Origin: Mustelus asterias
Lineage: Eukaryota
Assembly: GCF_964213995.1 (NCBI RefSeq)
Contig: NC_135808.1
Span: 3,658,001 to 3,722,000, forward strand
Direction of reading: 5' to 3'
DNA: 64,000 bases
The notes beneath the pieces are model-generated. The model saw only the letters and a list, made by a program, of their open reading frames with translations. It ran no database searches and was not told where the DNA came from. This document shows, one piece after another, positions 1,064-37,260 of the stretch. Position numbers and translations under genes: made by a program. Each line of letters begins with the position of its first letter. Position 1 is the stretch's first letter.

Positions 1064-3058
1064 TCAGTAGGGGTGGTGATCGGGAGGAGGGGGTGGTGAT
1101 CGGGGAGAGAGGGGGTGGTGATCGGGGAGAGAGGGGGTGGTGATCGGGGAGAGAGGGGGTGGTGATCGGGGAGAGATGGGGTGGTGATCGGGGGGAGAGA
1201 GAGAGGGGGTGGTGATCGGGGGGAGAGGGGGGTGGTGATCGGGGGGAGAGGGGGTGGTGATCGGGGGGGGAAGGAGGGGGTGGTGATCGGGGGGGAAGGA
1301 GGGGGTGGTGATCGGGGGGAGAGGCGGTGGTGATCGGGGAGAGAGGGGGTGGTGATCGGGGAGAGAAGGGGTGGTGACCAGGGAGAGAGGGGGTGGTGAC
1401 CGGGGAGAGAGGGGGTAGTGACCGGGGAGAGAGGGGGTGGTGACCGGGGAGAGAGGGGGTGGTGACCGGGGAGAGAGGAGGTGGTGACCGGGGAGAGAGG
1501 GGGTGGTGACCGGTGGGAGAGGGGGTGGTGACCGGGGAGAGAGGGGGTGGTGACCGGGGAGAGAGGGGTTGGTGACCGGGGAGAGAGGGGTTGGTGACGG
1601 GGGGAGAGGGGATGGTGATCGGGGGGAGAGGGGGTGGTGATCGGGGGGAGAGGGGGTGGTGATCGGGTAGGGAGGGGGTGGTGATCGGGGGGAGAGGGGT
1701 TGGTGATCGGGGGGAGAGGGGATGGTGATCGGGGGGAGAGGGGGTGGTGATCGGGGGGAGAGGGGGTGGTGATCGGGTAGGGAGGGGATGGTGATCGGGG
1801 GGAGAGGGGGTGGTGATCGGGTAGGGAGGGGACGGTGATCGGGGGGAGAGGGGAAGGTGATCGGGGGGAGAGGGGGTGGTGATCGGGGGGGAAGGAGGGG
1901 ATGGTGATCGGGGGAGAAGGAGGGGGTGGTGATCGGGGGGAGAGGGGATGGTGATCGGGGGGAGAGGGGATGGTGATCGGGGGGAGAGGGGGTGGTGATC
2001 GGGGGGAGAGGGGGTGGTGATCGGGTAGGGAGGGGATGGTGATCGGGGGGAGAGGGGGTGGTGATCGGGTAGGGAGGGGATGGTGATCGGGGGGAGAGGG
2101 GAAGGTGATCGGGGGGAGAGGGGGTGGTGATCGGGGGGGAAGGAGGGGGTGGTGATCGGGGGAGAAGGAGGGGGTGGTGATCGGGGGGAGAGGCGGTGGT
2201 GACCAGGGAGAAAGGGGGTGGTGATCGGGGAGAGAGGGGTTGGTGACCAGGGAGAGATGGGGTGGTGACCGGGGAGAGAGGGGGTAGTGACCGGGGAGAG
2301 AGGGGGTGGTGACCGGGGAGAGAGGGGGTGGTGACCGGGGAGAGAGGAGGTGGTGATCGGTGGGAGAGGGGGTGGTGACCGGGGGGAGAGGGGTTGGTGA
2401 CCGGGGGGAGAGGGGTTGGTGACCGGGGGGAGAGGGGGTGGTGACCGGGGGAGAGGAGGTGGTGACCGGGGGGAGAGGGGGTGGTGACCGGGGGGAGAGG
2501 GGGTGGTGACCGCGGTGAGAGGGGGGGTGGTGATTGGGGAGAGGGGGGGTGGTGATCGGGGGGAGAGGGGATGGTGATCGGGGGGAGAGGGGGTGGTGAT
2601 CGGGGGGAGAGGGGGTGGTGATCGGGGGGAGAGGGGATGGTGATCGGGGGGAGAGGGAGTGGTGATCGGGGGGAGAGGGGGTGGTGATCGGGTAGGGAGG
2701 GGATGGTGATCGGGGGGAGAGTGGGTGGTGATCGGGGGGAGAGGGGATGGTGATCGGGGGGAGAGGGGATGGTGATCGGGGGAGAGGGGATGGTGATCGG
2801 GGGGAGAGGGGGTGGTGATCGGGTAGGGAGGGGGTGGTGATCGGGGGGAGAGGGGATGGTGATCGGGGGGAGAGGGGATGGTGATCGGGGGGGAGAGGGG
2901 GTGGTGATCGGGTAGGGAGGGTACGGTGATCGGGGGGAGAGGGGATGGTGATCGGGGGGAGAGGGGATGGTGATCGGGGGGAGAGTGGGTGGTGATCGGG
3001 GGGAGAGGGGATGGTGATCGGGGGGAGAGGGGGTGGTGATCGGGTCGGGGGGATGGTG
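1064..3058 (+). repeat. G-rich minisatellite, ~19-23 bp unit (GGGGGTGGTGATCGGGGGGAGA and GACC variants), in the intron upstream of the MHC alpha1 exon
   Basis: About 2 kb of directly visible tandem units; ends ~70 bp before the alpha1 splice acceptor. Confidence 0.97.
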
Positions 3059-3130
3059 AAGTCCAGCGAGATTGTTCTGTTGATCAGACCGGTGTTTATT
3101 GACCAATCCCTTTAACTGTTTCTTTTCCAG

Positions 3131-3391
3131 ACACTAACACACTCATGGTGATATGCACTGTTGCCTCTGGGATCGAAGATTTTCCTGAGATCACAAGCAC
3201 TGCAGAGGTTAATGGTGTCCTCATAGGATATAGTGACAGTAATATCCGTCGCTGCATTCGCAGGCAGAGGTTCATGGCTGAATATATTGACTCTGAATTC
3301 TGGGACCATATCACAGAACTGGTGAACTCGCACACAAACATGGTAAAGGAGAATCTGAATACAGTGCTGAAAATCACAAACCAGACATCCG
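3131..3391 (+). CDS. MHC class I-like heavy chain, alpha1 exon
   Basis: tcttttccag acceptor and G|gtaag donor, 261 nt, phase 1-1. Translates DTNTLMVICTVASGIEDFPE...GYSDS...EFWDHIT...NQTSG, with the N86 glycosylation sequon typical of class I alpha1. Confidence 0.93.
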
Positions 3392-3438
3392 GTAAGATCA
3401 GGCAGAGAGAAACAGCGTGTTGATGTACAACCTTACAA

Positions 3439-4307
3439 TGAACTCAATCCATCTCCCAGCACTGACCCCTGGGACACTGAACTCAATCCATCTCCCAGCA
3501 CTGACCCCTGGGACACTGAACTCAATCCATCTCCCAGCACTGACCCCTGGGACACTAAACTCAATCCATCTCCCAGCACTGACCCCTGGGACACTGAACT
3601 CAATCCATCTCCCAACACTGACCCCTGGGACACTGAACTCAGTCCCCCAGCACTGACCCCTGGGACACTGAATTCAGTCCCCCAGCACTGACCCCTGGGA
3701 CACTGAACTTAGTCCCCCAGCACTGACCCCTGGGACACTGAACTCAATCCATCTCCCAGCACTGACCCCTGGGACACTGAACTCAGTCCCCCAGCACTGA
3801 CCCCTGGGACACTGAACTCAGTCCCCCAGCACTGACCCCTGGGACACTGAACTCAGTTCCCCAGCACTGACCCCTGGGACACTGAACTCAGTCCATCTCA
3901 GTCCAGGGGCAGCACGGTGGCACAGTGGTTAGAACTGCTGCCTCACAGCGCCAGGGACCTGGGTTGGATTCCCAGCTTGGCTCCACTGTCTGTGTGGAAT
4001 TTGCACGTTCTCCCCATGTCTGCGTGGGTTTCCTCGGGTGCTCCGGTTTCCTCCCACAGTCTGAAAGACATGCTGGTTCGGTGTATTGGCCATGCTAAAT
4101 TCTCCTTCAGTGTACCCGAACAGGCGCCGAAGTGTGGCGACTAGGGGAATTTCACAGTAACTTCATTGCAGTGTTAATGTAAGCCTTACTTGTGACTCAT
4201 CAATTAATGTCAGTATCTCCCAGCACTAACCCCTGGGACACTGAACTCAGTCCCTCAGCACTCACCCCTGGGACACTGAACTTAGTCCATCTCCCAGCAC
4301 TGACCCC
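3439..4307 (+). repeat. 39/35-bp minisatellite (TGAACTCAATCCATCTCCCAGCACTGACCCCTGGGACAC) in the alpha1-alpha2 intron, interrupted by a SINE
   Basis: About 12 tandem units at 3439-3900 and ~3 degenerate units at 4210-4307. Confidence 0.95.
3906..4205 (+). mobile_element. tRNA-derived V-SINE (HE1-like head, alternative 3' tail)
   Basis: GGCAGCACGGTGGCACAGTGGTTAG A-box head; V-domain TCTGCGTGGGTTTCCTC...GGTGCTCCGGTTTCCTCCCACAGTC; tail ...CTTACTTGTGACT. Confidence 0.85.
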
Positions 4308-4448
4308 ATCTAATTTAGTAACCTCACCGCTCAGCTTCCTGCTACTGATGGCACAGGAAGATTCCGTCCATTTCTATCCGAGACTAGATCCCCTTTCACC
4401 ACTGAAAAGATTGTCTATTGATTATTGATCCCTGTTTGGTTCTGACAG

Positions 4449-4724
4449 GAATTCACATTTTTCAATGGATTTGGTCTGTTGAGGTCACTGAAGACGGCTC
4501 CATTAAGAGATCGATGCGGTTTGGATTTGATGGAAAGGACTATATTAGTTTAGAGCCAAACAGAATGAGATGGGTCGCGTCCAATCACTTCGCAGTGAAG
4601 ACTAAAGAGAAATGGGACTCTGATCAACGCTGGAATAATTACTGGGAAAAATATCTGCAGGAAGTATTTGTTCAACATTTAAATAAATATTTGGAAGCTG
4701 GAAAAGAATATTTTGGACGGAAAG
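4449..4724 (+). CDS. MHC class I-like heavy chain, alpha2 exon
   Basis: ttctgacag acceptor, G|gtattg donor, 276 nt (canonical length). Motifs GIHIFQW, FGFDGKDYISL, TKEKWD, YLQEVFVQHLNKYLEAGKE; no cysteines. Confidence 0.95.
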
Positions 4725-4841
4725 GTATTGAATTCAGTTTTGAGCCCATGTTCTGATCTAACTTCACTGATCTATCAAACCATTCTCCCATTCCATTCAG
4801 TGTGGGTTTATTGTTTTTGTTTTCACCCTTTCCCATTACAG

Positions 4842-5120
4842 TTCAGCCTGAAGTCTTCATCTCCAGAAGTGAGCCCAATGGTCAGTACAATCCGCTCACT
4901 CTCTCCTGCCTGGTTACTGGCTTTTATCCTGCAGACATCGAGGTGACCTGGCTAAGGAGTGGAGAAGTAATGTCTGAGATACTATCCTCAGGGGTTCGAC
5001 CGAACCACAATGGGACCCATCAGATCCAGAAAGAGATTGAAATAAATGCTGGGGATGAGGATCAATACTGCTGTCAAATTGAACACAGCAGCCTGGCAGA
5101 GCCCAAGCTCCATAAGTGGG
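4842..5120 (+). CDS. MHC class I-like heavy chain, alpha3 (C1-set Ig) exon
   Basis: cccattacag acceptor, G|gtgag donor, 279 nt. LSCLVTGFYPADIEVTW...RPNHNGTHQ...YCCQIEHSSL is a C1-set/MHC signature. Confidence 0.97.
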
Positions 5121-5493
5121 GTGAGGAACTGTATTGGATATGTGCATGTATTTGCATGCACATCCGGGAGCGCATTCCCATTCTCTCCATTCCCTGTCTC
5201 CCCCCATGCCAACCAATTTTCACCCAATGGCAAAGATTCCCTTCAATTCCAGACACTCTGATTATTGTCAAGAATCTCTTGTGTGGAACATTATCAATGA
5301 CCTTCTGGAAGTCCATCTCGAGCAGGTCCATAGACACTCCCTTATCCACCATGGGGCCAGTGTCAAAGCAAAGCTTCAACCAATCCCATTTGGACTGGGG
5401 CCGCTTCAATTCACATTATCCCCAATGAACATAGAACTGGGACTGGATCCGGAAACAGAGAAACAATCCTCATATTATTCAAATGTGTTTCAG

Positions 5494-5604
5494 AAATCCT
5501 GGGAAACAGTGGGGGACGCTCCCATCTTGGTATTATAATCGGATCAGTGATCCCAGCACTGGTTGTTATATTCGGAATAATCATCTGGAAAAGACAACGG
5601 ACAG
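5494..5604 (+). CDS. MHC class I-like heavy chain, connecting peptide/transmembrane exon
   Basis: tgtttcag acceptor, G|gtaag donor, 111 nt. EILGNSGGRSHLGIIIGSVIPALVVIFGIIIWKRQRT: hydrophobic span followed by a basic stop-transfer sequence. Confidence 0.92.
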
Positions 5605-5999
5605 GTAAGAATCAGAGAGAGGGGAAAATAGAACTGAGGGGACAGAGTGAGTGTAGGGAATCTCCAGTACTGGGACACTGTGTTGAATGAACTGATTTAA
5701 TTCCCACACACAGATACACACGTATAAACACATCTTGTTCCCTGTCTGATCTTCCTTTGTGTGATCAGCCCAGATCAGGTGTAACATTGATCATTAAAGC
5801 CACCGCACACACTCTCATCCTCACCTGAATACGGATGGAATGGAAGAGATCTGCAGGATCTCCATAAAGTGTAAGGATGGAGGGGAGTGTGAGAATGAGT
5901 ATTTCTCACACAATCTCCATTCCCTCACACTTATTGTGTTCTCACTCTCTGAGAATGGATTATTCCCCATTCTAACTGACATTTATTTTACTTCTGCAG

Positions 6000-6032
6000 A
6001 TTCACCAAGTGGGGCGTACACAACAGATCCCA
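6000..6032 (+). CDS. MHC class I-like heavy chain, cytoplasmic exon
   Basis: Branch-like ctgac, pyrimidine tract, ctgcag acceptor and A|gtaagt donor; 33 nt, DSPSGAYTTDP. The final coding exon is uncertain (an acceptor at 6111 would add KF-stop). Confidence 0.8.
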
Positions 6033-6849
6033 GTAAGTGACTGAGGCACGGATTGTTGGGAATGAAATACATTCACGTTTTGTGCACTTTTCTCACTTTC
6101 TGATTGCTCAGAGTTTTAAATATCTTTAAATGTTTGCGGATTTTGATCAAGACTTTTTGGACTCAGTATAAAAGACTCTGTGATACATCCAGTAATGGAG
6201 AAGACAATCAGGATGTTGAAAACATTTTTCTGGTGCTGGGCAGTTTTGCACTTCACTTTATAAGTTGTGTGAGATGAAGGAAAGTGAAAGTTGATCTGAT
6301 GAATTCCCACACAGTCACGGAGTGTTCACCCGGCTCCTTTGTACAGGACTCTGTGCTGTACAGGCTGTTCCCAGGAACACACATTGAGATAAACACCGTA
6401 TCTTGCTGGAGGACCATCAACTCAGTGGAAATCAGCCTGAAACTCACAGCTGTTCCAGGGCAAAGGGTTTTTTTAGACTGTCGCATTGCAAGGTCCAGGA
6501 ATACTGGTGAGGGACACAACACAGCTTGGGGCAGCCACTGGAGACACTCCATGGGGAAAGACCTCTGACTAAGACCCTCCCATCATAGCTACAGGGAGTG
6601 GCTGAAAAATATGTCAAATCTCTGTGTGAATATTGCTGAGATAATATTGCCAATCTAAATTGTAACTCTGAGTGTAGTGAGACTCTACAGAATGTCAGAA
6701 TTTATATTGATAGAAACTGGCCCATTTTGATCCTTCTGTAATGTCATATTTGATGTGTTCTACAATGTATTTTTGTTTATTTTAATGTTATAACACATTT
6801 ATGGAGGAAAGTCTACAATCAGTGAAGCATCAATAACTGGTTTGTAATC

Positions 6850-6855
6850 AATAAA
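6850..6855 (+). terminator. Probable polyadenylation signal of the class I gene
   Basis: AATAAA at the end of an AT-rich unique stretch, followed by a GT/T-rich tract (gtgtttgacttgtc). Confidence 0.55.
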
Positions 6856-8170
6856 TAATTGTCAGTGTTTGACTTGTCTGAATTCTTCTTCACTGATTTC
6901 ACAGGAAAGGTTTAATTCATTCACTCAGCAGCTTGTGACGATTGGAATGGGCAGTTGTTGAGGTTCAATTCAATGTGAACTGGCTGAGTTCATACCAAAT
7001 GTCAACATCATTCACTGTTTTCCATCAGCATTGATTCACTTGTTAATAGAAAAGGAGATGTCAGTGCGAGAGACAGAGGAGAGGAAGACCTGTCCTAACT
7101 TAAGTGAATCAAACTTCAGCACATTTCCCAGTGAGCTGGAGGTGAAGGCTCACCAGCTCCTCAGTAATGAGAAGTGTAGGGAACCTCAAAGTGAGTGTGT
7201 TGGTGCCAAGCTGTTCCAGTACAGCTACAACACAGGCATCTCCCGACAATGTATAAAATTGCCCAGGTATATGCTGTACACTAGAAACAGGACAAATTTA
7301 ACCCTGCCTATTACAACCCAATCGGTCTACTGTCAATCATCAGCAAAGTGATGAAGGGGTTATCAACAGTGCCGTCAAGCGGCACTTACTCAGCAATAAT
7401 TTGCTCAGTGACACCCAGTTTGTGTTCCGCCAGGGTCACTCAGCTCCTGACCTCATTACAGCTTTGGTTCAAACATGGACAAAAGAGCTTAATTCCAGAG
7501 GTGAGATGAGAGTGATAGTCCTTGATATCAAGACCGCATTTGACCGAGTGTGGCATCAAGGAGCCCTCGTAAAACCGGAATCAATGGGTATCAGGGGGAA
7601 AACTCTCCACTGGTTGGAATCATAACTAGCACAAAAAATGGTGGTTGTGTGATTGGAGGTCAATCATCTCAGTCTCTGGGCATCAATGCAGGAATTCCTC
7701 AGGGTCGTGTCCCAGTCCCAACCATCTTCAGCTGCTTCATCAGTGACCTGCCTTCTAGGATAATGTCAGAAGTGGCGATGTTCGCTGATGATTGTGCAAT
7801 GTTCAGCTGCATTATTACGACTCAGATATTGAAGCAGTCCATGTCCAAATGCAGCAAGACCTGGACAATGTCCAGGCTTGGACTAACAAGTGGCAAGTAA
7901 TATTTGTGTCACACAAGTGTAAGGCAACAATCACCTCCAACAAGAGAGAATCTAACCATCGCCCCTTGACATTCAATGGCATTGCCATGACTGAATCCCC
8001 CATTAGCAACATCCTGGGGCCTACCATTGACCAGAAACAAAACTGGATTAGCCATATAAATACTGTAGTTACAAGAGCAGGTCAGAGGTTAGGAATCCTG
8101 CAGTGAGTAACCACCTCCTGACTCCCCAAAACCTGTCCACCATCTACATGGCACAAGTCACGAGTGTGAG

Positions 8171-8574
8171 GATTGTATTCATTGGAGTTTAGAAGAGTGA
8201 GAGGGGATCTCATTGAGACTTATAAAAGTCTAACAGGATTAGACAGGGTAGATTCAGAAAGGATGTTCCAAATGGTGAAGGAGTCCAGAACTAGGGGTCA
8301 CAGTTTGAGGATAAGAACTGAGATGAGGAGAAATTTCTTCACTCAGAGTGGTGAATGTGTGGAATTCACTACCACAGAAAGTAGGTGAGGCCAAAACATT
8401 GTGTGACTTCAAGAATAAATTAGATATAGCTCTTGGGCCTTTTGGGATCAAGGGTTATGGGGGAAAGGGGATCATGATATTGAATTTGATGATCAGCCAT
8501 GATCATAATGAATGGTGAAAAGTCTCGAAGGGTCGAATGGCCTCTTCCTGCTTCTGTTTTCTACGTTTCTATGT
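8171..8574 (+). mobile_element. CR1 (HER1-like) LINE 3' fragment
   Basis: YSLEFRRVRGDLIETYK...ESRTRGHSL C-terminal ORF2 motif plus a CR1-type 3' tail. Confidence 0.85.
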
Positions 8575-8685
8575 AATGGAATTCTCTCCACTTGTCTAGA
8601 TGAGTGCAGCTCTAAAAACACTCAAGAAACTCAACAGACACTATTCAGGATAAAGCAGCCCGCTTCATTGCTACCCATTCCACAA

Positions 8686-9008
8686 GGGGCGGCATGGTGG
8701 CACAGTGTTAGCACTGCTGCCTCACAGCACCAGGGACCCGGGTTTGATTCTTGTCTTGGGTCACTCTGTGTGAAGTTTGCACATTCTCCCCGTGTCTGCG
8801 TGTGTTTCCTCCGGGTGCTCCAATTTCCTCCCATGGTCCAATGATGTGTGGGTGAGCTGGACTGGCCAAGCTAAATAACCCCTTTGTGTCATGGAGATTA
8901 GCGCAGCTAAATACATGAGTTAATGGGGATGGGGCCTGTGTGGGATTGTGGTCGGTGCAGACTCAATGGGCTGAATGGCCTCCTTCTGCACTGGAGGATT
9001 CTATGATT
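8686..9008 (+). mobile_element. HE1-like V-SINE with CR1-type tail
   Basis: tRNA head, V-domain, tail GGGCTGAATGGCCTCCTTCTGCACTG...TTCTATGATT. Confidence 0.85.
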
Positions 9009-10286
9009 CAAGCCCTTCACCACTGATGCACAGTGGCAGCTGTGTGAACCATCTACAAGATTCACTGGAGGAACTCACCAAGGCTCCTTAGACAGCACCT
9101 TTTAAACCCGCTAGTAGCACCTTACAAAGAACAAAGAACATTACAGCACAGGAACAGGCCCTTCGGCCCTCCAAGCCTGCGCCGCTCCCTGGTCCAAACT
9201 AGACCATTCTTTTGTATCCCTCCATTCCCACTCCGTTCATGTGGCTATCTAGATAAATCTTAAACGTTCCCAGTGTATCCGCCTCCACCACCTTGCCTGG
9301 CAGCGCATTCCAGGCCCCCACCACCCTCTGTGTAAAATATGTCCTTCTGATATCCGTGTTAAACCTCCCCCCCCGCCCCCCCCCCCACCTCACCTTGAAC
9401 CTATGACCCCTTGTGAATGTCACCACCGACCTGGGAAAAAGCTTCCCACCGTTCACCCTATCTATGCCTTTCATAATTTTATACACCTCTATTAGGTCTC
9501 CCCTCATCCTGTCTTTCCAGTCAGAACAACCCCAGTTTACCCAATCTCTCCTCATAACTAAGCCCCTCTATACCAGGCAACATCCAAGTAAACCTCCTCT
9601 GTACTCTCTCTAAAGCCTCCACGTCCTTCTGGTAGTGTGGTGACCAGAACTGGACGCAATATTCCAAATGCGGCCGAACCAACGTTCTATACAACTGCAA
9701 CATCAGACCCCAACTTTTATACTCTATGCCCCGTCCTATAAAGGCAAGCATGCCATATGCCTTATTCACTACCTTCTCCACCTGTGACGTCACCTTCAAG
9801 GATCTGTGGACTTGCACACCCAGGTCCCTCTACGTATCTACACCCTTTATGGTTCTGCCATTTATCGTATAGCTCCCCCCTACGTTAGTTCTACAAAATG
9901 CATCACTTCGCATTTATCTGGATTGAACTCCATCTGCCATTTCTTTGCCCAAATTTCCAGCCTATCTATATCCTTCTGTAGCCTCTGACAATGTTCCTCA
10001 CTACCTGCAAGTCCAGCCATTTTCGTGTCGTCTGCAAACTTACTGATCACCCCAGTTACACCTTCTTCCAGATCGTTTATATAAATCACAAACAGCAGAG
10101 GTCCCAATACAGAGCCCTGCGGAACACCACTAGTCATAGGCCACCAGCCGGAAAAAGACCCTTCCACTACCAACCTCTGTCTTCTGTGACCAAGATGTGG
10201 AGATGCCAGCGTTGGGCTGGGGTGAACACAGTAAGAAGTCTCACAACACCAGGTTAAAGTCCAACAGGTTTATTTGGTAGCAAATA

Positions 10287-10323
10287 CCATAAGCTTTCGG
10301 AGCACTGCACCTTCGTCAGATGG
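10287..10323 (-). ncRNA. Minimal hammerhead ribozyme motif (one stem II mismatch)
   Basis: Minus strand reads CCAT-CTGACGA-A-GGTGC(AGT)GCTCC-GAA-AGCT-T-ATGG. Confidence 0.65.
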
Positions 10324-10453
10324 AGTGGAAATGTGCTCTCAAACAGTGCACAGAGACACAAAATCAAGTTACAGAATACTGTATTCTATAAGTTACAGTA
10401 TTCTGTAACTTGATTTTGTGTCTCTGTGCACTGTTTGAGAGCACATTTCCACT

Positions 10454-10490
10454 CCATCTGATGAAGGAGCAGCGCTCCGAAAGCTTATGG
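10454..10490 (+). ncRNA. Minimal type I hammerhead ribozyme motif
   Basis: CCAT-CTGATGA-A-GGAGC(AGC)GCTCC-GAA-AGCT-T-ATGG: intact core boxes, stems I and II, palindromic stem III. Confidence 0.75.
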
Positions 10491-11649
10491 TATTTGCTAC
10501 CAAATAAATCTGTTGGACTTTCACCTGGTGTTGTGAGACTTCTTATTCTGTGACTAAGCCAGTTCTCCACCTATCTAGCCACCTCCCCCTTTATCCCATG
10601 AGATCCAACCTTTTGCACCAACCTACCATGAGGGACTTTGTCAAACGCTTTACTAAAATCCATATAGACGACATCCACGGCCCTTCCCTCGTCAACCATT
10701 CTAGTCACTTCTTCAAAAAACTCCACCAGGTTATGAGGCATGACCTCCCTCTCACAAAACCATGCTGACTATCGTTAATGAGTTTATTCCTTTCTAAATG
10801 TGCATACATCCTATCTCTAAGAATCCTCTCCAACAACTTGCCTACCACGGACGTCAAGCTCACCGGCCTATAATTTCCCGGGTTATCCTTCCTACCCTTC
10901 TTAAATAACGGGACCACATTAGCTATCCTCCAAACCTCTGGGATCTCACCTGTGTCCAGTGGCGAGACAAAGATTTGCGTCAGAGGCCCAGCGATTTCAT
11001 CTCTCGTCTCCCTGAGCAGCCTTGGATAGATTCCATCAGGCCCTGGGGATTTGTCAGTCTTTATATTCCCTAAAAAACCAAACACTTCCTCCCTTGTAAT
11101 GGAGATTTTCTCTAACGGGTCAACACTCCCCTCCGAGACACTCCCAGTCAACACATCCCTCTCCTTTGTGAATACCAACGCAAAGTATTCATTTAGGATC
11201 TCCCCTACTTCTTTGGGCTCTAAGCATAATTCCCCACTTTTGTCCCTGAGAGGTCCGATTTTTTCCCTGACTTTTGTTCCTAACGTATGAATAAAATGCC
11301 TTGGGATTCTCCTTAATAACCTTGAAGGACAAGGACAGCAGACACTTGGGAACACAAACCACCTGGAGGTTCCGTTCCAAGCCACACACCACCCTAACTT
11401 GGAAATATATCAGCTGTTCCTTCACCGTCACTTGGTCAAAACACTGGAACTCCCACTCTAACAGTACTGTGAAGGGCAACTAGGGATGGGCAATAAATGC
11501 CTAGTCAGTAATTTTCACACCCCGTTGAGACTAAAAAAGAAGCAACGTGGAAAGAAATTGAATAATTTAACAGTCTTACAGTGTTTGTAGAATTCTTGCA
11601 AGTTTTTCATTGAAATTTTAATTGATAATTGAATGGGTTATGGAGTGAG

Positions 11650-11950
11650 GATGCACATACACCTTCGCGTAAGCATGCACATATATACCAGCGCGCACGT
11701 ACAGACACACACACACAAACAGACAACTGTAAACACACACATGAACACACATGCATACACAAACAGACACATGCAAACACACAGACACAAAGATACATAC
11801 GCACACACAGGGACCAACACATACATACATACGTGTACACACAGACACGTGCACACACTGGTGTGCAAATAAGCACACACATGCTCATATACACACACTA
11901 CGCTCATATTCACACATACAGCGGCAAAGAGAGGTGTATCCACACAGATA
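11650..11950. repeat. Degenerate (CA)n-rich microsatellite
   Basis: Visible CA/TA-rich low-complexity tract. Confidence 0.9.
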
Positions 11951-12052
11951 CGATTTACAGATTTCTCATACGACAAGCTTTCCATCCCAAAGATCATTCT
12001 TGTGAGCCTCCTCTGGATCCTTTCCAAGACCATCACATCCTTCCTTAGATAT

Positions 12053-13512
12053 GATTTGTTTGATTTATTATTGTCACATGTATTATCAGACAGTGAAAAG
12101 TATTGTTTCTTGCGCGCTATACAGACAAAACATACTGGTTCATAGAGAAGGAAATGAGAGTGCAGAATGTAGTGTTACAGTCATAGCTAGGGTGTAGAGA
12201 AAGATCAACTTAATGCAGGGTAGGTCCATTCAGGAGTCTGACGGCAGCGGCGAAAAGGCTGTTCTTGAGTCGGTTGGTGTGTGACCTCAGACTTTTGTAT
12301 CTTTTTCCCGGGGGAAGAGGGTGGAAGACAGAATGTCCAGGGTGCGTGGGGTCCTTGATTGTGCTGGCAGCTTCGCCGAGGCAGCGGGAAGTGTAGACGG
12401 AGTTAGTGGATGGGAGGCTGGTTTGCATGATGAATTGGGCTACATTCCTGACTTTTTGTAGATCCTTGCGGTCTTGGGCAGCGCAGGAGCCGTACCAAGC
12501 TGTGATACAACCAGAAAGAATGCTTTCTATGGTGCATCTGTAAAAGTTGGTGAGAGTTGTAGCTGACACACCAAATTTCCTGAGTCTTCTGAGAAAGTAG
12601 AGGCGTTGGTGAACTTTCTTAACTATAGTGTTGGCATGGGGGGGACCAGGTCAGGTTGTTAGTGATCTGGACACCTAAAAACCTGAAGCTCTCAACCCTT
12701 TCTACTTCATCCCCATTGATGTAGATAGGGGCATGTTCTCCTCTACACTTCCTGAAGTCAATGACAATCTCCTTCATTTTGTTGACATTGAGGGAGAGAT
12801 TATTGTTGCCACATCAGTTCACCAGATTCTCTGTCTCATTCGTGTACTCTGTCTTATCATTGTTTGAGATCCGACCCACTACGGTGATGTCGTCAGCAAA
12901 CTTGAAATTCGAATTGGAGGGGAATTTGGCCGCACAGTCATAGGTGTATAAGGGGTAGTCGGTGGCTGAGAACACAGCCTTGTGGGGCACCGGTTTTGAG
13001 GATGATCGTGGAGGAGGTGTCGTTGCCTATCCTTACTGATTGTGGTCTGTGAGTTAGGAAGTTCACATCCAGTCGCAGAGGGAGGTGCCAAGGTTCAGGC
13101 CACTGAGTTTGGAGATGAGTTTCGTGGGAATAATAGTGTTGAAGGCTGAGCCGTAGTCAACAAATAGGAGTCTGACATAGGTGTCCTTGCTACCTAGGTG
13201 TTCCAGGGTTGAGCGCAGGGCCAGGGAAATGGCGTCTGCTGTGGACTTGTTGCGGCGGTTGGCAAACTGTAGTGGATCCAGGTAGTCCGGGAAGCTGGAA
13301 TTGATCCGTGCCATGACTAACCTTTCGAAGCACTTCATAATGATGGATGTCAGAGCCACCGGCCGATAGTCATTAAGGCATGCTGCTTGGTTTTTCTTAG
13401 GTACCAACATGATGGTTGTCTTCTTGAAGCAGATAGGGACCTCAGATTGTTGTAAAGAGAGGTTGAAGATGTCTGTGAATACCTCAGCCAGCTGATCCGT
13501 GCAGGATCTGAG
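12053..13512 (-). mobile_element. Rex1/Babar-type LINE, 5'-truncated, inserted in a minus-strand CR1 fragment
   Basis: [57 protein letters not shown] motifs; 3' end ATGTGACAATAATAAATCAAAC. The host CR1 continues on both sides (11960-12052, 13515-13612). Confidence 0.85.
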
Positions 13513-13611
13513 TTCTGGGGCCCAAAACTGCTCACAGTACTCCAAATGGGGTCTGACCAGAGCCTTACAAAGCCTCAGAAGTACATCCCTGCTCTTGTAT
13601 TCTAGCCCTCT

Positions 13612-14405
13612 CGACAAGTGTGAGATATTGCACTTTGGAAGGACAAACCAAAGTAGAACGTACAGGGTAAATGGTAGGACTCTGAAGAGTGCAGTTGAAC
13701 AGAGGGATCTGGGAATCCAGGTACAGAATTCCCTAAAAGTGACGTCACAGGTGGATAGGGTCGTAAAGAGTGCCTTTGGTACATTGGCCTTTATAAATCG
13801 GAGTATCGAGTATAAACGTTGGAGTGTTATGGTAAGGTTATATAAGACATTGGTGAGGCCGTATTTAGAGTATTGTGTACAGTTTTGGTCACCTAGTTAC
13901 AGGAAGGATGTAAATAAGGTTGAAAGAGTGCAGAGAAGGTTCACAAGGATGTTGCCGGGACTTGAGATGCTGAGTTACAGAGAGAGATTGAATAGGTTGG
14001 GACTTTATTCCCTGGAGCGTAGAAGAATGAGGGGAGATTTGATAGAGATGTATAAGATTTTGATGGGTATAGATAGAGTGAATGCAAGCAGGCTTTTTCC
14101 ACTGAGGCGAGGGGAGAAAAAAACCAGAGGGCTTGGGTTAAGAGTCAAAGGAGAAAAGTTTAAAGGGAATATTAGGGGGGGCTTCTTCATGCAGAGAGTG
14201 GTGGGAGTGTGGAATGAGCTGCCAGATAAAGTGGTAAATGCAGGGTCACTTTTAACATTTAAGAAAAACTTGGATGGGTTCATGGATGAGAGGGGTGTGG
14301 AGGGATATGGTCCAAGTGCAGGTCAGTGGGACTAGGCAAAAAATGGTTCGGCACAGACAAGAAGGGCCAAAAGGCCTGTTTCTGAGCTGTAATTTTTCTA
14401 TGATT
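13612..14405 (+). mobile_element. CR1 (HER1-like) LINE 3' fragment with open ORF2 C-terminus
   Basis: DKCEILHFG...[14 protein letters not shown]...RGDLIEMYK...WNELP, followed by a CR1 tail. Confidence 0.92.
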
Positions 14406-14932
14406 CTTTGATTCTAGATACAGGTCACAGTTAAGGATTTTCTGTGGGGGAACATTTACAATTGGCATGGAAACCATTTCCCTCACAATTAAGAGCAGTG
14501 GGCAGGCTCCCCAATAGCCAATCCGGATTCCTCCAGCTTTCGGCAAACACCCAGCTGCAGTACAAGGTGTGTAACTGAGAAGCTGCTTCAACAGGAAGTT
14601 CCACGTTAGTCACTTCAGAAAAACATCAAAATAAACCCGGAAAGAAGCCAGGCCACCATTATGGGGGTGAGGGAGAGTGTGGTGAGGGGACGGGAATGTC
14701 CATCTACAGGGCAAACTGTGGCTGCTCTTACAGCCAGGCAAACTGAAAGGGACTGTAGGAGCACTGTCCACACTGGCCAACTGCTGGGTGCTCACACCAG
14801 ACCATTCATCTGCTCAATTTCGAATTGGGAAACCTAAAGCTGACTGGAAAAATTGCAGTTTAACAAGGTTTTTAATAAGCCTAACAGTCTGTACCCTTAT
14901 GGGGGCAGGTGGCCTGACTGGGCCCAAAGCCT

Positions 14933-15030
14933 GTAAGAAGTTTAACAACACCAGGTTAAAGTCCAACAGGTTTATTTGGTAGCAAAAGCCACACAAGCTT
15001 TCGAGGCTCTGAGCCCCTTCTTCAGGTGAG
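14933..15030 (-). mobile_element. Penelope-like terminal fragment with hammerhead motif (14992-15028)
   Basis: Same CAACACCAGGTTAAAGTCCAACAGGTTTATTTGGTAGC block as at 10243. Minus strand reads CAC-CTGAAGA-A-GGGGCT(CAG)AGCCTC-GAA-AGCT-T-GTG. Confidence 0.75.
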
Positions 15031-15439
15031 AGCAGCAGCTAAAATGATGGTTGTCTGCAGTGTGGCTTCTTCATAATTTTCAAGCCCCTTTCATGTCCAT
15101 TCCTGATGGGGGAGGAAGCTGGAAATGGACAATTTCCTGATAACTGGTGACAGGATAGGTGAATTCTCCCTCAGTGTACCTGAGCAGGTGCCGGAGTGTG
15201 GCGACTAGGGGATTTTTTCAGTAACGTCATTGCAGTATTAATGTAAGCCGACTTGTGAAAAATAAATAAACTTTAGAAATTCTTTCCCTTTCATTTGCTC
15301 TTTTTCTGACACTAATCAATCATTCACCCTATGGTCGTGTGGCTTAACTTCAGGGAACTGATCACATTTCAATGAAGACAGGAAACTGGAGTCCTTATCA
15401 ACATTTTTTTGTGTTTTTTCAATCACAATAAACAATATT

Positions 15440-15480
15440 AGTTTCCTCCTTTGAGTGTTTAATTCCCAGTCACTGATTGG
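15440..15480 (+). promoter_or_regulatory. MHC-like proximal promoter: ISRE-like site and Y box
   Basis: AGTTTCCTCCT at 15440 and exact Y-box CTGATTGG at 15473-15480, 23 nt before a signal-peptide ATG. Confidence 0.5.
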
Positions 15481-15503
15481 AATTGAGACAGTGGATTCCC
15501 AGA

Positions 15504-15554
15504 ATGTTGCTGATCCTTTTCTCCATCTCCCTTGTTTTCCCTGGGTCTCTCCCG
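15504..15554 (+). pseudogene. Orphan signal-peptide (leader) exon, probably of a second class I paralog
   Basis: ATG-initiated MLLILFSISLVFPGSLP followed by a consensus G|gtaagt donor; no matching alpha exons found downstream in the window. Confidence 0.55.
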
Positions 15555-16729
15555 GTAAGTACAGAATTCACTCCTCCATTCTCACTCTCTCTGGGGTGAA
15601 TTTGAATCTTTCAGTGAGAGTTTGAAATGGGTGATGTTTGCTCAGATGTTGTTATACAGCCAGCCTGACATTTGACACCATTGAAGTAAACACGGTGCAG
15701 AAGACTCTGATGGGATTGGCGTTCAGCTCTCCTGACAGCAGGATGTACAAACACCCAGAGCAGAGAAGCTTGGAGCAAATGGAAAATGCTTCAAATGGAC
15801 AATTTTAATTTTCACTTTGATTGGGAGAAGCAAAACAGCTTCATCACTCCTGGTCTAAAGTCTTTGAAACGCTTTGGAGAGGAGAAGGATAATTCATGTT
15901 TTACCCACCCCAGGCTCTGTTGTGATGCCCTCATGGTTGAAAATGTCAGGTTATCTCAGACCACCAACATCCTAGTGAGTATGTATAAAGGGGTGATTAA
16001 AAAGCTCTGTGACGGACAGTGGAGATCCTGCTCTAGATGGTCCATCCCCCTGTTTGACAGTCAGACTGTTCATACAGTGACTGCTCCCCACCCCCCAAAC
16101 CTTCATCCTCCCAAATATTACTGTTTCTCTCCATTTCAATCCACAATTCACATCACATCTTTCCTTGTTATGACGATAAACAACAGAACAGTCCCGAGTG
16201 ACTGATTCCGTGTTTACTCCCTGCTCTGAGACTCTGCAGCATCAATTCTGACCCAGTTTAATCCGATTCTGTTTCAGACAGGATTCTGACATTGGAATAA
16301 AGCGGGGGATTATTGGAGTTTGTCACTGTGTGGATGGCTCTCACTGTGATCAGGGGGTAGTGTGTGGAAATGTTTATTATCCTGTCACTGTAATTGTTTA
16401 ATATAGACACAGAAAATGAATGATGAACGGATCAGCATCAGCAGCATCAGATGGGGGGAGAAACAGTTCACAGAGATGATTGTCTCTCCATGCCCACAGC
16501 TGGGATCTTACAGTGGTGCAGATTTCCTCCAATGGAGCCGGCATTTGCCAGTGGAAAATCCCCGTCAACTTTAGAGAGATACAGACTGGGAAAGTTAATT
16601 CTTTTCTCTCTGCACAGATATTGCCAGAACCGCTGTTTTTCCAGTATCCACACTGTTCCATGGTGGATTTACAATGAAACACACTGTGCCCCGACACAGG
16701 GCTCCCAGAGTGATCAGCGACTCTCTCAC

Positions 16730-17160
16730 AGCCAATCAGAGAGAGAACCACTTTGAAATCCCTTCCAGAACTTACCTGTCAATCAGTCTGCTGGGCCAAT
16801 CACAGAGGAGAGGGCAGCTCTTTGCTGACACAATCATTGGTCAGAATGAGATTACCCACAACTCTGACCAACGGTCATCCAGACTCAAAACGTTGGCTCT
16901 ATTCCCTCCCCACAGATGCTGTCAAACCTGCTGAGATTTTCCAGCATTTTCTGTTGTTGGTATGTTACCCATGTGTCCCCAGGCCTGCGCAGTGAGGAGT
17001 GGCAGTATGGAATCAGGGGGAGAGCCAGCCCGCGGTGCCTGGTGGGAGTTGTAGTTCTGCCGTGAGCAGCGGCAGTTGGCGCCCCGCGTCTGGGAGTTGC
17101 AATGTGAGGAAGCACGAGCCCAAGCGGCTGTCATGGGTGTGGGGCTGGAATTGGAGGTGC
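16730..17160. promoter_or_regulatory. GC/CpG-rich promoter-like region with CCAAT boxes and ZNF143/THAP11-type motifs
   Basis: AGCCAATCAG (~16730) and GGCCAATCAC (~16795); TGGGAGTTGTAGT at 17043-17055 (= ACTACAACTCCCA) and a second CTGGGAGTTGCAAT at 17090-17103. Confidence 0.55.
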
Positions 17161-17249
17161 ACACCTGTAAATCCCAGCCCCGGGCAGCCAGTTAAGCATC
17201 CTCACTCCCATCCACCCTCCCTCAGCAGCACCCCCATCCCCCGTCAAGA

Positions 17250-19030
17250 TACAAGGTATTAGTGAGGCCACAGTTAGAATATTGCGTACAGTTTTGGTCC
17301 CCATATTTAAGGAAATATATTGTCACTGGAGCAGTACAGAGGAAGTTTACTAGGATGATCCTGGGTACGGAGGGACTGCCATATGAGGAAAGATTAAACA
17401 GTTTGGGTCTGTGCTCCTTGGAGTTCAGAAGAATGAGGGCTGAAATGAATGAAACACATAAGAGTCTTAGGGGGTTAGACAGGGTAAATGTTGGGAGGAT
17501 GTTTCCACTCATGGGAGAGTGTCGGATCAGAGGGCAGAGCTGCAGAATAAGGGGGTGATCATGTAACATGAATTTGAGGAAGAATTTCTTCTCCCAAAGA
17601 AAAGTAAAAAGTTTATTTATTGTCACAAGTCGGCTTACATTAACAATGCAATGAAGTTGTGAAAATCCCCGAGTCGTCACACTCCGGTGCCTGTTTGGGT
17701 ACACTGAGGGAGAATTTAGCATGGCCAATGCACCCAACCAGCATGTCTTTCGGACTGTGGGAGAAAACCAGAGCACCCGGAGGAAACCCACGCAGACACG
17801 GGGAGAACGTGCAGACTTCGCACAGTCAGTCATCCAAGCTGGAATCAAACCCAGGTCCCTAGCGCTGTGAGGCAGCAGTGCTAACCATTGTGTCAAATAT
17901 TCAAAGCTTCCATTGCCTTTGGAGGAGGAGAGTCTCAGAGCCTCGTGACTCTCTGAGAGAAAACATTTCTCCTCATCTCTGTCTTGAACAGGAGACCCCT
18001 TATTTTAAACGCTGACCCCGAGTTCCAGATTTGTAATTTTCTTTGTTCTTTTACACAGAGGGTGGTGGGTGCCTGGAACTTGCTGCCGGGGGAGGTAGTG
18101 GAAGCGGATACAGTAGTGGCTTTTAAGGGTGTCTTGACAAATACATGAATAGCATGGGAATAGAGAAGGTAGGGGGTTTTAGTTAAGTCAGGCAGCATGG
18201 TCGGTGCAGGCTTGGACGGCCAAACGGTCTGTTCCTGTGCTGTAATTTTCTTTGTTCTTTATTCTCCCACAAGAGGAGAATCCTCTCCACATCCATCCTG
18301 TCAATACCCCTCAGGCTCTTACAACCCAGTCCATGAACTCTCACACGGGCTCTGTGTTCCTCAGGTACCCCTGTGCTCACTGACCTGTAAGTTCCCAGTC
18401 AAGCAACCCATAAAACCAGAAGATGTAGGATCAGGTGTAGGTCATTCAGCCCATTGGGTCACCTCCACCATTCAATGAGATCATGACTGATCCTGATGTG
18501 ATAATCCTCAGCTCCACTTTCCCACCTTATCCCCATAATCCTTCATTTCCTAACTCATTAAAAATTTATCTCAGTCTTAACATACTGAATGACCCGGCTT
18601 CTACAGCCTTCTGCGGTAAAGAATTCCATAGATTCACTCCCCTCTGAAAGAAGAAATTCCTCCTCATCTCTGTCTCAAATGGGTGACTCCTAACTCTGAG
18701 ATTTTGCCCTCTGGTCCTGGATTCTCCCACAAGGGGAAACAACCTCTCAGCATCGACCCTGTCAAATCCCCTGAGAATCCGATATGCCTCAATAGGTCAC
18801 ATCTCATTCTTCTAAACTCCAATGAGTACAGGCCCAACCTTCATTCCCGGGATTAACCCAGTGAACCTTCTCTGGACTGCCTCCAATGCAGTATATCTTT
18901 CCTTAGATAAGGGGACTAAAATTGTTCACAGTTTGCCAGGTATGGTCTAACTCGTGCCTTGTATAGTTTTAGCAAGCTTTCCCAAATTTTTATACTCCAT
19001 TCTCTTTGAAATAAAGCCAGCATTCCCTCT
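17250..19030. mobile_element. Cluster of CR1 3' fragments on both strands with a minus-strand V-SINE (17605-17894)
   Basis: [19 protein letters not shown], several CR1 tails, and the reverse complement of the V-SINE head and body. Confidence 0.8.
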
Positions 19031-19487
19031 GCCCTGGATTTTAAAATTGAAATCTCTCCATGTCCTCGCCCCTTCCTATTTCTGTAATCTCTTCCAACTT
19101 CACAAACTCTGTGAGATGTCTGTGTTCCTCTCATTTGGACATCTCCAGTATCAGGGATTAGAATCTCCCCACACTGGGGACTGTGCCTTTAGTAACCTTG
19201 GCCCTTCACTCTAGGGAGGCCAGACGTCCGGCTTTAGGCCAGACAGTCCAGCTTTTGAGCACTCGGTCCTCCGTCCGGCGCCACCTTGAGCCGGATGTTA
19301 ATTTGTTCCCCTTTTTTGGGGGTCTCACTAGCTGGCTGGACAACTGACAAGAGTCCCCTGTCACCTCTTTTTGGAGAAGCATCTTGTTCCACCCAGGCAC
19401 GTCACAGACCAGCAGTCAGCCTTCGCCAAGATCAGAGACCTCGGGGGGCGGATGTCTCACCCACCATGAGCTGCTGGCCAATGAGAG

Positions 19488-19740
19488 TCATGACGTGGAG
19501 ATGCCGACGTTGGACTGGGGTAAACACAGTAAGAAGTCTCACAACACCAGGTTAAAGTCCAATAGGTTTATTTGGTAGCAAACGCCACTAGCTTTCGGAG
19601 CACTGCTCCTTCGTCAGGTGGGTGGGAGTTCTGGAATTCCCACCCACCTGACAAAGGAGCAGCAAGCGCTTCGAAAGCTAGTGGCGTTTGCTACAAATAA
19701 ACCTGTTGGGCTTTAACCTGGTGTGGTGAGACTTCTGACT
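19488..19740. mobile_element. Second Penelope-like fold-back element with hammerhead motifs
   Basis: Inverted arms centred near 19632; GGCCAATGAGAG direct repeats at 19476 and 19742. Intact motif on the minus strand at 19585-19621 (CCAC-CTGACGA-A-GGAGC(AGT)GCTCC-GAA-AGCT-A-GTGG); mutated copy on the plus strand at 19644-19684. Confidence 0.8.
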
Positions 19741-20859
19741 GGGCCAATGAGAGGCCAGCACTTCTTCCCTGCTGGGAAGCCGGTGGCCGCTGGGAGGCCA
19801 GTGGCTGCTGCTGGTAATGCATCATCCGCCTGAGTGCCAGCATCAATGAGAGACCCAGGCTGCAGGTAGGTGATGAGGAGGAGAGGGAGATCATGGGGTG
19901 GGGGAGGTAAGGGATTTCAGAGGTAAGGGCATGATGGGTTTCTCAACAGAAGCCCCTTCCTGATGCAGGATCCCTTTATCAGCAACTGAGTGCTTTTAAA
20001 TGAGGGACTGTCTCGGGAAGCCCACACACAACATTGACAAGGTTTGCTCTTACATGACAGGTTTCCTACTCAGCGCTGGGTGGGATGAAACCCTTAGGTG
20101 GGTATTAATTACCCACTTGATGGCCTCAACTGATGGCAGGGCACAAAGTTCCTCCATGAGCCTTCCTGCCCAAGACTAATTGGGAAATGCAGGAAGATGA
20201 CAAGGGCCCCAACTGGCACCTTCCCACGCAATTAAATGCCCCACCACCAAACTCACCATGGGAGGGGGCATTAAATTCCACCCTCCATGTCTACCATGCA
20301 CTTCCCTGTTTGCTTCGTTCTTCTAAATTCCAGAGAATACAGACCCAAGTTATCCAGTATCTCACATCATAGGACAACCCCCTCATATCCTGCCATCAAT
20401 CTAGTGAACCTTCTCTGTACCACCAAAAATGCAAGTATCTCTGTCCTTAAATATAGGTACCAAAACTGCTCAGTAATCCAGGTGCAGTCTCAAAAGCTCT
20501 GTACAAGGGTTCCTTGTTCAAACACCCTCAATATCTGATCATGGGACCCAGCTTCTCTATCCTCCAATCTTCTTGCAAAAAAGGTCTACAAGCTGTTTGC
20601 TTTCCTAATTGCTTGCTGTACCTTCATGATAACTTTCTGTGGTTCAGGACACTGAAATCTGTCCCAACACCAACATCTGGAAGTTTGGTTTTTGCTGGAT
20701 TTTGAATTTTGCTGGATTTATATAGGCGAAAAAAAGTATCAGGTTAGAATTTTTATTTAATAAAATAACTAAAGTGATCATCTGCTTGCATTTGTTGTTT
20801 TTGCAATACGGTTTAAATTTAAAAAAAAAAATTTTTTTTGAAATGCCCTGTATATATAT

Positions 20860-20912: not shown

Positions 20913-21230
20913 TTCTGGACCATTGAACGGATTGAACATCGGTTTAACATCAACTCCTCTCCTGAATCCTGTCTTCCTCTCCCTGCTGGTCAGATCCTCA
21001 ATAAAGTGGGAGTGTATCTCAGTTATGAGTCAGGGACAATTTCATTTTACAGTGTGGACACCAAGTCCCATATCTACACATTCACTGGAAATAAATTCAC
21101 AGAGAAACTTCATCCTTATTTTCAGACTTGGGATAAAAACCAGTGGATGAGAATCTGCTCCGGTTCTGCTCCAGATCTGGAAAAGGGGTGGGGCCTCAGG
21201 GTGGTCACGTCATCCCTAACCTCACAATGA
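20913..21230 (+). pseudogene. C-terminal half of a B30.2/PRY-SPRY exon (TRIM-like), 5'-truncated
   Basis: In frame FWTIERIEHRFNINSSPES...NKVGVYLSYESGTISFYSVDTKSHIYTFTGNKFTEKLHPYF; two AATAAA at ~21347-21362. Confidence 0.88.
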
Positions 21231-22674: not shown

Positions 22675-23165
22675 GAAAGAACATCGGAACAGGAGAAGGC
22701 CATTTGGCCCATTGAGCCTGCTTTGCTATTCTATTCAATCATGGCTGATGATCTACCTCAATGCCACTTTCCCATCCTATCGCCATATTCCTTGATGTCA
22801 TTAGCCTCTAGAAATCTATCGATCTTAGTCTTGATCGTACTCAATGATTGAGTTCCCACAGCCCTCTGGGGTAGAGAATTCTAAAGATTCATCACCCTCG
22901 AAGTGAAGAACTTCCTCCTCATCTCAGTCTTAAATGGTCTACCTCTTATTCTGAGATTATCTCCCCTGCTTCTGGACTCACCCCAGTCCAACGCCGGCAT
23001 CTCCACATCTGGACTCACCAGTCAGGGGAACATCCTATCGATATCTAACCTGTCAAGCCTTGTAAGAACTTTGTAAGTTTCAATGAAATCACCTCTCACG
23101 CTTTTAAACTCTCGAGAATACAGGCCCAATTTCCTCAAACTCTCCTCATAAAATAATCCCTCCAG
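22675..23165 (-). mobile_element. Degenerate CR1 3' fragment
   Basis: Reverse complement of the CR1 C-terminal coding region and tail; contains a micro-insertion at 22983-23007. Confidence 0.7.
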
Positions 23166-36808: not shown

Positions 36809-37260
36809 GTCATCGGATAGTGTTGTTTCATATTGACTTGATTTTAATTAATATGAATTTTCTGAACGAGCAGGCATTTTTTACCCTCCTCAGCCCTGGG
36901 GGCCAAGTTGCCCCTCCCCTCTGTGGTGAACCATCGTTGGTTACCACTGTGGGGTTATTCCAATGTTACTGTTGGGTTAGGGTGTTGCCACTGTGGGGGT
37001 TGTTATAATGTTGTTGGGTTAGGGTGTTTACCTGTGGTAGATGTTGTTATGGCACATCTCGGTCGGGCCCCGCCTCCTGGAGAGAGGTATAAGACCCTCT
37101 GCTCAGGCGGGACCCCTCCAGTCTGAACTGGTGTACTCGTGTTAGTTAGTTCCATTGTTTGCTAATAAAAGCCTTCAATAGCTGAAGCCTTGTACCTCGT
37201 GCTTGATTGTCGCGCATCAATTTTATTAGCAAACATAAAACTCTCGACAGTAAAGGGAGT

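Follow-up and report, generated by a model that had tools for sequence, protein, structure and literature searches.

The 64-kb window analysed here, a stretch of 64,000 nucleotides from Mustelus asterias, carries five motifs resembling a minimal hammerhead ribozyme. The question is whether these motifs are working ribozymes that act on transcripts of the surrounding MHC-like locus, as the initial annotation proposed, or the ends of a mobile element. All five were located at the positions and on the strands given in Table 1. Four of them have an intact CUGANGA-A...GAAAGCU-H core, together with the CUGANGA and GAAA boxes, an NUH triplet, stems I and II and the palindromic remnant of stem III that characterize minimal type I hammerheads. 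The single scheme drawn for all five describes these four cores well, and fits less well the mismatch at 10287, the short stem I at 14992 and the missing G8 at 19644. The same features were found in 104 of 129 copies anchored by their flanks, a sample biased towards intact motifs, and H17 is a G in one of 103 copies.

Table 1. Hammerhead motifs, insertions and target-site duplications in the window
Feature	Position	Strand	Remark
Minimal hammerhead motif	10287..10323	-	Intact core; stem II with a U-U mismatch
Minimal hammerhead motif	10454..10490	+	Core and both stems intact
Minimal hammerhead motif	14992..15028	-	Stem II of 6 bp; stem I of 3 bp only
Minimal hammerhead motif	19585..19621	-	Core and both stems intact
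Broken hammerhead motif	19644..19684	+	G8 lost through a CpG change; loop with 4 extra bases
Insertion 1, back-to-back inverted pair of PLE 3' ends within a LINE fragment	10195..10545	.	Tail on minus arm, none on plus arm
Left target-site duplication, insertion 1	10182..10194	+	13 bp; 12/13 identical to 10546-10558
Right target-site duplication, insertion 1	10546..10558	+	
Insertion 2, single tail-less stub, sister subfamily	14933..15031	-	99% identity to element 3' end in L069
Insertion 3, back-to-back inverted pair	19488..19741	.	Minus arm has tail reaching the element's ATG
Left target-site duplication, insertion 3	19476..19487	+	12 bp; identical to 19742-19753
Right target-site duplication, insertion 3	19742..19753	+	
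Tail-only piece of the same Penelope-like element	22983..23007	+	No hammerhead; 12-bp direct repeats 22971-22982, 23008-23019

The pairing reported for the stems was confirmed in the window motifs, both for stem I (CCAU/AUGG and CCAC/GUGG) and for stem II (GGAGC/GCUCC and GGGGCU/AGCCUC). The compensatory change in stem I is real, but sequence comparison traces it to one inherited split between subfamilies. N7 and H17 both vary across subfamilies around a constant core, in line with tolerated variation; the U/C change at N7 is nevertheless likely to be decay, because this position sits at a CpG. A scan of the window with the Rfam covariance models returned no hammerhead family at E<=1, as would be expected for hammerheads without helix III. 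The motifs are not chance resemblances, because each is contained in a shared repeat of 96-175 bp and because a genome search with one exact 28-nt pattern gave 42,927 matches (21,430+21,497), against 0 for the reversed control.

The five motifs represent three insertion events, two fold-back pairs and one single stub, rather than five independent dispersed modules. Insertion 2 has neither a target duplication nor an inverted partner, and its site is empty in two paralogous MHC loci. The LINE that hosts insertion 1 is absent from the paralogous loci. No empty site was found there for insertion 3; a fold-back in a paralogue that resembles it has unrelated flanks and is a separate insertion. Inverted pairs account for nine of 19 insertion events counted in 264 kb around the window. 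Direct repeats of 11-14 nt bound all eight inverted pairs tested (one compound pair was excluded), compared with one of seven single insertions and four of 300 random pairs.

The motifs can be assigned by sequence to the pLTR end module of a very high-copy, Neptune-type Penelope-like retrotransposon, where the label Neptune refers to the linker motif and not to a tree with reference PLEs. Full-length elements of the family are present in the same genome. In two of the 15 loci scanned (L062 and L066), the arrangement is motif-ORF-motif, with the motifs on the same strand 3,016-3,017 bp apart and a tail that ends at the ATG. The element in L062 has a single ORF of 892 aa with RT and GIY-YIG domains, and in long copies the endonuclease ends ~215 nt upstream of the motif. 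Profile searches of the element proteins gave RVT_1 at E 6.7e-10, above the cut-off, and GIY-YIG at E 3.3e-4 on a fragment from L012, just under Pfam's cut-off; on two whole proteins, GIY-YIG had no match at E<=0.01. A C-x4-C-x2-C linker lies between the RT and the endonuclease in the L012 and L062 proteins, and a CX2-5CxxC linker is common to Neptune, Nematis and Naiad (PMC8557442). The closest named proteins come from sharks, with 80-92% identity over part of the protein. An RT fragment retrieved 33,793 candidates in the genome, and the 150 that were scored are 95-100% identical with open frames of up to 917 aa. The ORF with RT and C-terminal GIY-YIG is thus found in family members elsewhere in the genome and not in the window copies, which have the form of endonuclease-positive PLE copies: 5' truncation, an adjacent inverted copy and a tail at one end. 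Both the attribution to minimal type I hammerheads of a Penelope-like element and the relation of the flanks to full elements were borne out. No description of this shark family was found in the literature searched, Repbase, subscription journals and supplements lying outside that search.

If the copies worked as ribozymes, their cores would be expected to outlast the flanks. Preferential conservation of the core among genome-wide copies, which the initial annotation had set as its own test, is absent. Core positions are intact at 91.59% (20,415/22,289) and matched flank positions at 91.54% (35,414/38,687; p=0.83), a comparison made on nine non-CpG core sites of the dominant subfamily that would miss selection acting at a few loci. 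That core and flank decay alike, and that the sites of insertions 1 and 2 are empty or absent in the paralogues, also speaks against a domesticated host hammerhead. The core does not change from one subfamily to another, whereas loop II, H17, N7 and the stems do, and the motif is therefore under selection somewhere. The hammerhead is maintained in master elements, not in copies.

The proposal that dispersed copies pair through AGCU and cleave RNA of this locus, host or antisense, has some features on its side. An MHC class I-like gene does lie nearby, as had been suggested, with the end of its membrane exon ~4.6 kb upstream. The minus strand holds three intact cores at intervals of 4.6-4.7 kb, their stem II fully paired or with one mismatch, and a double hammerhead with both stems I could be built from the 19585 and 14992 copies. 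This fold is predicted at -19.5 kcal/mol, against -22.8 for two monomers and -32.5 for a non-catalytic dimer, in a model that ignores tertiary contacts, and pairing the 10287 copy with either of the other two loses the core-adjacent stem I pair in one half. In both window pairs the motifs lie on opposite strands, so a single RNA would form a long hairpin and not an AGCU dimer. Hairpins of -175 to -295 kcal/mol are predicted, with the core paired at a probability of 0.89-1.0, and four of the five motifs would be locked against their own reverse complement. Among the minimal PLE hammerheads described so far, cleavage is poor even in dimeric form (PMC4209133) or depends on the protein of the element (PMC11167929). 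Given the lack of core conservation, the hairpin locking, the spacing of 4.6-9.2 kb between same-strand neighbours and the insertions that differ between MHC paralogues, working modules of this kind are very improbable.

The best explanation takes the five motifs for pLTR ends, contributed by three short insertions and likely inert passengers, with the hammerhead probably mattering only in full-length master RNA (probability about 0.88). This reading builds on direct observations: the family identity, the pLTR-ORF-pLTR elements, the target duplications, the fold-back, the one-arm tail, the equal decay of core and flank and one empty site. From these we infer that the window copies are inert, and they likely do nothing for the neighbouring immune gene. 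In the proposed mechanism, the element protein would nick the target and start reverse transcription inside its own RNA, at one of two sites ~35-40 nt apart, either before the tail or at the tail end beside the ATG. Two priming events at staggered nicks would produce two inverted arms, only one of them tailed, and a duplication of 11-14 bp. Many cDNAs would run past the hammerhead core and end 4-20 nt upstream of it, probably where the RNA itself begins, leaving stubs of 100-150 bp, and most templates would be copied across an uncut hammerhead. Of 66 copies, 22 start within 20 nt upstream of the core, against 1-3 per 20 nt in the bins on either side other than +20..+40; two of the 22 resemble duplicates, and the two arms of a pair do not count as separate events. 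In the masters, the two same-strand motifs 3.0 kb apart would be the natural partners for a slow, probably protein-assisted cleavage.

The fold-back units are also short, non-coding, very numerous and bounded by target duplications, as would be a separate non-autonomous family, MITE-like or retrozyme-like, copied as a unit. Non-LTR retrozymes, for which an origin in PLE pLTRs has been proposed, are likewise non-coding and pLTR-derived with a type I hammerhead (Li et al. 2026, bioRxiv 10.64898/2026.07.22.740005). They form head-to-tail tandem arrays with a hammerhead per unit, whereas the window copies are single or inverted, and no head-to-tail array was found at the three window insertion sites; an identification as non-LTR retrozymes was rejected on this point. 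Fold points differ from one insertion to the next, with arms of ~60 to 1,600 bp, the longest reaching into the ORF, and each unit matches a subfamily with long-ORF elements or long copies. A separate family is therefore improbable, and passive stubs of master elements remain preferred.

The arrangement agrees with known systems. Minimal hammerheads in metazoan PLE pLTRs were described in 2014 by Cervera and De la Pena (PMC4209133). The features they give are shared here: helix III is missing, the 15.1-16.1 segment is palindromic, an extra base precedes stem II, a G10.1-C11.1 pair is present and stem I is short; most motifs are dispersed singly, and others are paired, at 100-700 bp on opposite strands or at ~3 kb on the same strand around an RT ORF. 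Sharks are unmentioned in the main text consulted, and the 42,927 exact matches counted here exceed the 4,000-9,000 motifs reported for coelacanth and frog, although the methods differ. Insertion units of Neptune and Nematis also show 5' truncation, partial tandems, an adjacent inverted 5'-truncated copy, a one-end tail of 30-40 bp, a C-terminal GIY-YIG and the C-x4-C-x2-C linker (Craig et al. 2021, PMC8557442). Poseidon of the green anole likewise has a tail between two inferred reverse-transcription starts, a pLTR hammerhead and copying that runs through the uncut motif (Frangieh et al. 2024, PMC11167929). This element belongs to a different clade; its ORF begins inside the hammerhead and reverse transcription starts within the ORF, whereas in the shark element ~80 nt separate the cut from the ATG downstream of it, which is also where the tail ends.

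An addition to the preferred reading, not an alternative to it, is that germ-line cutting by the hammerhead does occur in a minority of element RNAs, with copies that start at the cut as the fossil record. Near the predicted cut, at +20..+40, lie seven of the 66 copy starts. Across the predicted cut 12.1% of the matches are lost, against 4.2% in the next 5 nt (48,909, 43,001 and 41,182 matches). Junction patterns number 362 at the cut versus 260, 193 and 175 at +2, -4 and -10, a ~2-3.5-fold excess after a rough capture correction, and the 30 junction loci viewed (~25 distinct) are mostly real junctions. However, among the 11 losses at the first 100 places, six are point mutations, and two of the five junctions retain sequence from before the cut. 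Of perfect palindromes, 44 have their centre at the cut, about twice the 23 at +4, against 104 at +5 (a somewhat larger subfamily set), so this palindrome-centre test does not support precise cutting. Four contig-only runs aligned to a full-length element gave no pile-up of starts or ends, a signal that contigs would not carry in any case. Stem I and the internal hairpin provide microhomology exactly at the cut, and in the anole element no read ends were found where its hammerhead would cut (PMC11167929). The excess of copy starts at the cut is weak and ambiguous, and germ-line cutting is accordingly a doubtful proposal. Equally speculative is the suggestion that tens of thousands of stubs form a fossil map of element RNA ends, with the principal 5' end shortly before the hammerhead and a lesser one at the cut site. 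If true, the stubs would amount to evidence from the genome for germ-line cleavage by a minimal Penelope hammerhead, with removal of the leader from the element RNA, a question left open in the studies consulted.

The biological weight of the finding is small: a known ribozyme in a known retrotransposon class and a known arrangement, with copies that are apparently inert. The family is nevertheless a test bed: it is young, its copies are nearly identical and exceed 40,000, and its open frames are long. Counting these copies could show whether hammerheads of Penelope elements are active cutters in vivo and at what point the element RNA begins. Before functional ribozymes or microRNA hairpins are called in shark genomes, stubs of this kind should be masked. 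The microRNA hits returned by Rfam over 10262-10516 are below the gathering scores and reflect the fold-back.

The five minimal hammerhead motifs of the window are parts of three insertions of a Penelope-like element (PLE; see table). The coordinates and strands assigned to them in the initial annotation all match the sequence. The shared core described there holds for four of the five motifs, which contain both catalytic boxes; motif 19644 lacks G8, lost at a CpG, and has gained four loop bases. Stem II of the 10287 copy is interrupted by a U-U mismatch, and stem I of the 14992 copy consists of three pairs. An Rfam search of the window returned no hammerhead family at E ≤ 1. Every motif sits within a common 96-175 bp repeat, and two motif pairs form inverted repeats. 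An exact 28-nt pattern gave 42,927 matches in the 3.68 Gb genome, compared with 0 for the reversed control.

The proposed link to Penelope is upheld by reverse transcriptase (RT) and GIY-YIG frames flanking the motif. At 30 loci picked by the motif, the 3' side is common to all and the 5' break points are variable; the longest copies reach the 3' end of a GIY-YIG endonuclease frame, which stops ~215 nt before the motif. For the RT fragment adjoining this endonuclease, 33,793 candidates were found in the genome, the 150 scored being 95-100% identical. Among 15 ten-kb loci scanned, a motif-ORF-motif order was identified in two (L062 and L066), with a motif spacing of 3,016-3,017 bp. In these elements the 35-40 bp tail runs up to the start codon (ATG) of an 892-aa protein. 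This protein matches the RVT_1 domain above the cut-off; the GIY-YIG domain is just under the cut-off on a fragment and unreported on whole proteins. The C-x4-C-x2-C linker present in the protein, a motif defined in PMC8557442, points to the Neptune type. The nearest named proteins, from Mustelus, Scyliorhinus and Heptranchias, show 80-92% identity over part of their length, which makes a shark the likely host. The shark element is a new, very abundant family of a known class, no description of it having been found in the literature searched (Repbase, subscription journals and supplements were outside this scope). At L070, L074 and other RT-matched places, inverted pairs also reach the kilobase range, each joining two long open frames in back-to-back arrangement.

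Insertions of the same anatomy (pairs, target duplications, a tail on one arm) are described for PLEs in PMC8557442, and PMC4209133 reports PLE hammerheads as opposite-strand motif pairs 100-700 bp apart. Within 264 kb around the window, 19 insertion events were counted, nine of which are inverted pairs. Direct repeats of 11-14 nt were found in 8/8 pairs tested (one compound inverted pair was left out), versus 1/7 singles and 4/300 random flank pairs.

Features of the window
Feature	Position	Strand	Description
Tandem repeat	931-3133		long; stop-free proline-rich frames of 690-726 aa in all three minus frames
Tandem repeat	3435-4307		long; common to MHC paralogues
MHC class I-like gene	4448-5620	+	alpha 2 exon 4448-4708, alpha 3 near 4838-5122, membrane segment near 5520
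Back-to-back pair	10195-10545	both	13-bp target duplication, tail on one arm only
Single stub	14933-15031	-	99% identical to end of sister-subfamily element with 880-aa frame
Back-to-back pair	19488-19741	both	12-bp target duplication, tail on one arm only
SPRY domain piece	20913-21227	+	E 4e-10
Element tail alone	22971-23019		25 bp, bounded by 12-bp direct repeats; close to the minimum size for an insertion product
LINE RT frame	33322-35325	-	open for 667 aa
LTR retrotransposon	36922-40170		terminal repeats of 298 bp (98% identity); gag/pol-like frames split into several pieces
SRP (7SL) RNA copy	52462-52756	-	full-length, diverged; 124 bits vs cut-off 70

The MHC-like context noted earlier is borne out by the alpha 2 and alpha 3 exons and the membrane segment; no alpha 1 match to this gene occurs among the matches listed. 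The contig holds 140 MHC class I matches, mostly at 21-43 Mb. The window gene lies far from this main cluster and shares ~92% identity with paralogues roughly 29 Mb distant on the same contig. The site of the single stub is cleanly empty in two paralogous loci, and the LINE hosting the 10195 pair is absent from three. No empty site for the third insertion was found among the paralogous loci. The paralogues bear separate insertions of their own.

Preferential conservation of the core boxes, expected of self-cleaving modules in the initial annotation, was not observed among the genome copies. Of 22,289 copies, 20,415 (91.59%) are unchanged at all of nine non-CpG core positions, and of 38,687 copies, 35,414 (91.54%) are unchanged at nine flank positions matched in base composition (p = 0.83; loss of ~1% per site in both), in a comparison that holds the remainder of the 35-nt pattern fixed, covers the dominant subfamily only and is blind to a few domesticated loci. 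When copies are collected via their downstream flank, which favours intact motifs, both boxes are present in 104 of 129; the others are truncated, decayed at CpG or altered at scattered positions. Stem pairing is kept in 97-103 of 103 copies at eight positions, and in 89 of 103 at the fourth stem I pair. In a flank-only tree of 58 copies, chosen for an intact core, the stem I change between C-G and U-A falls on one split (support 99/96); repeated changes occur in loop II, H17 and stem II, and none in the core at the subfamily level. The stem covariation claimed earlier is therefore real, but in stem I it represents a single event, inherited from master elements.

The 5' starts of the copies cluster just before the core: 22 of 66 lie ≤20 nt upstream, against 1 in the next bin and a background of 0.6-3 per 20 nt further upstream, in a map that includes two apparently duplicate rows and non-independent paired arms and omits 23 copies from RT-selected loci. 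The cluster is most simply read as run-off at the 5' end of an RNA primed internally, such priming being shown for an anole element in PMC11167929; pausing at the structure and microhomology are rival explanations of the cluster. Seven of the 66 starts fall at +20 to +40, the bin holding the predicted cut at +29. An excess of starts at the cut site itself would fit the 12.1% loss of matches that nested patterns show across it, versus 4.2% over the next five bases, and the 362 matches of junction patterns at the cut versus 260, 193 and 175 at nearby positions (~2-3.5-fold after rough correction). This signal is weak and ambiguous, however: of 11 losses inspected, 6 were point mutations; many of the junctions are microhomology-bearing fold-backs; and palindromes with their centre at the cut (44) show no excess over those centred nearby (104 and 23). 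Read-through of the cut site is seen in at least 88% of the copies that reach it, and the templates were thus mostly uncut or rejoined.

The motifs had also been proposed as able to dimerise and cut host RNA. In both window pairs the motifs lie on opposite strands, and pair transcripts in either direction are predicted to form hairpins of -175 to -295 kcal/mol, with the core paired at a probability of 0.89-1.0. Same-strand neighbour motifs are 4.6, 4.7 and 9.2 kb apart, the plus-strand partner being the broken motif. Under a folding model without tertiary contacts, the double hammerhead comes out at -19.5 kcal/mol, weaker than both a pair of monomers (-22.8) and a non-catalytic dimer (-32.5). 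A host-cleaving role of the window motifs is not supported. Among published minimal Penelope hammerheads, monomers showed no activity and dimers little (PMC4209133), one needed the protein of its element and was dispensable for insertion in vitro (PMC11167929), and 1/9 frog retrozyme dimers cut (bioRxiv 10.64898/2026.07.22.740005).

Among the other features of the window, the SPRY piece, with its upstream part apparently in a different frame, could represent a broken exon of TRIM or butyrophilin type. Fragments related to the LINE RT frame fill much of the window.
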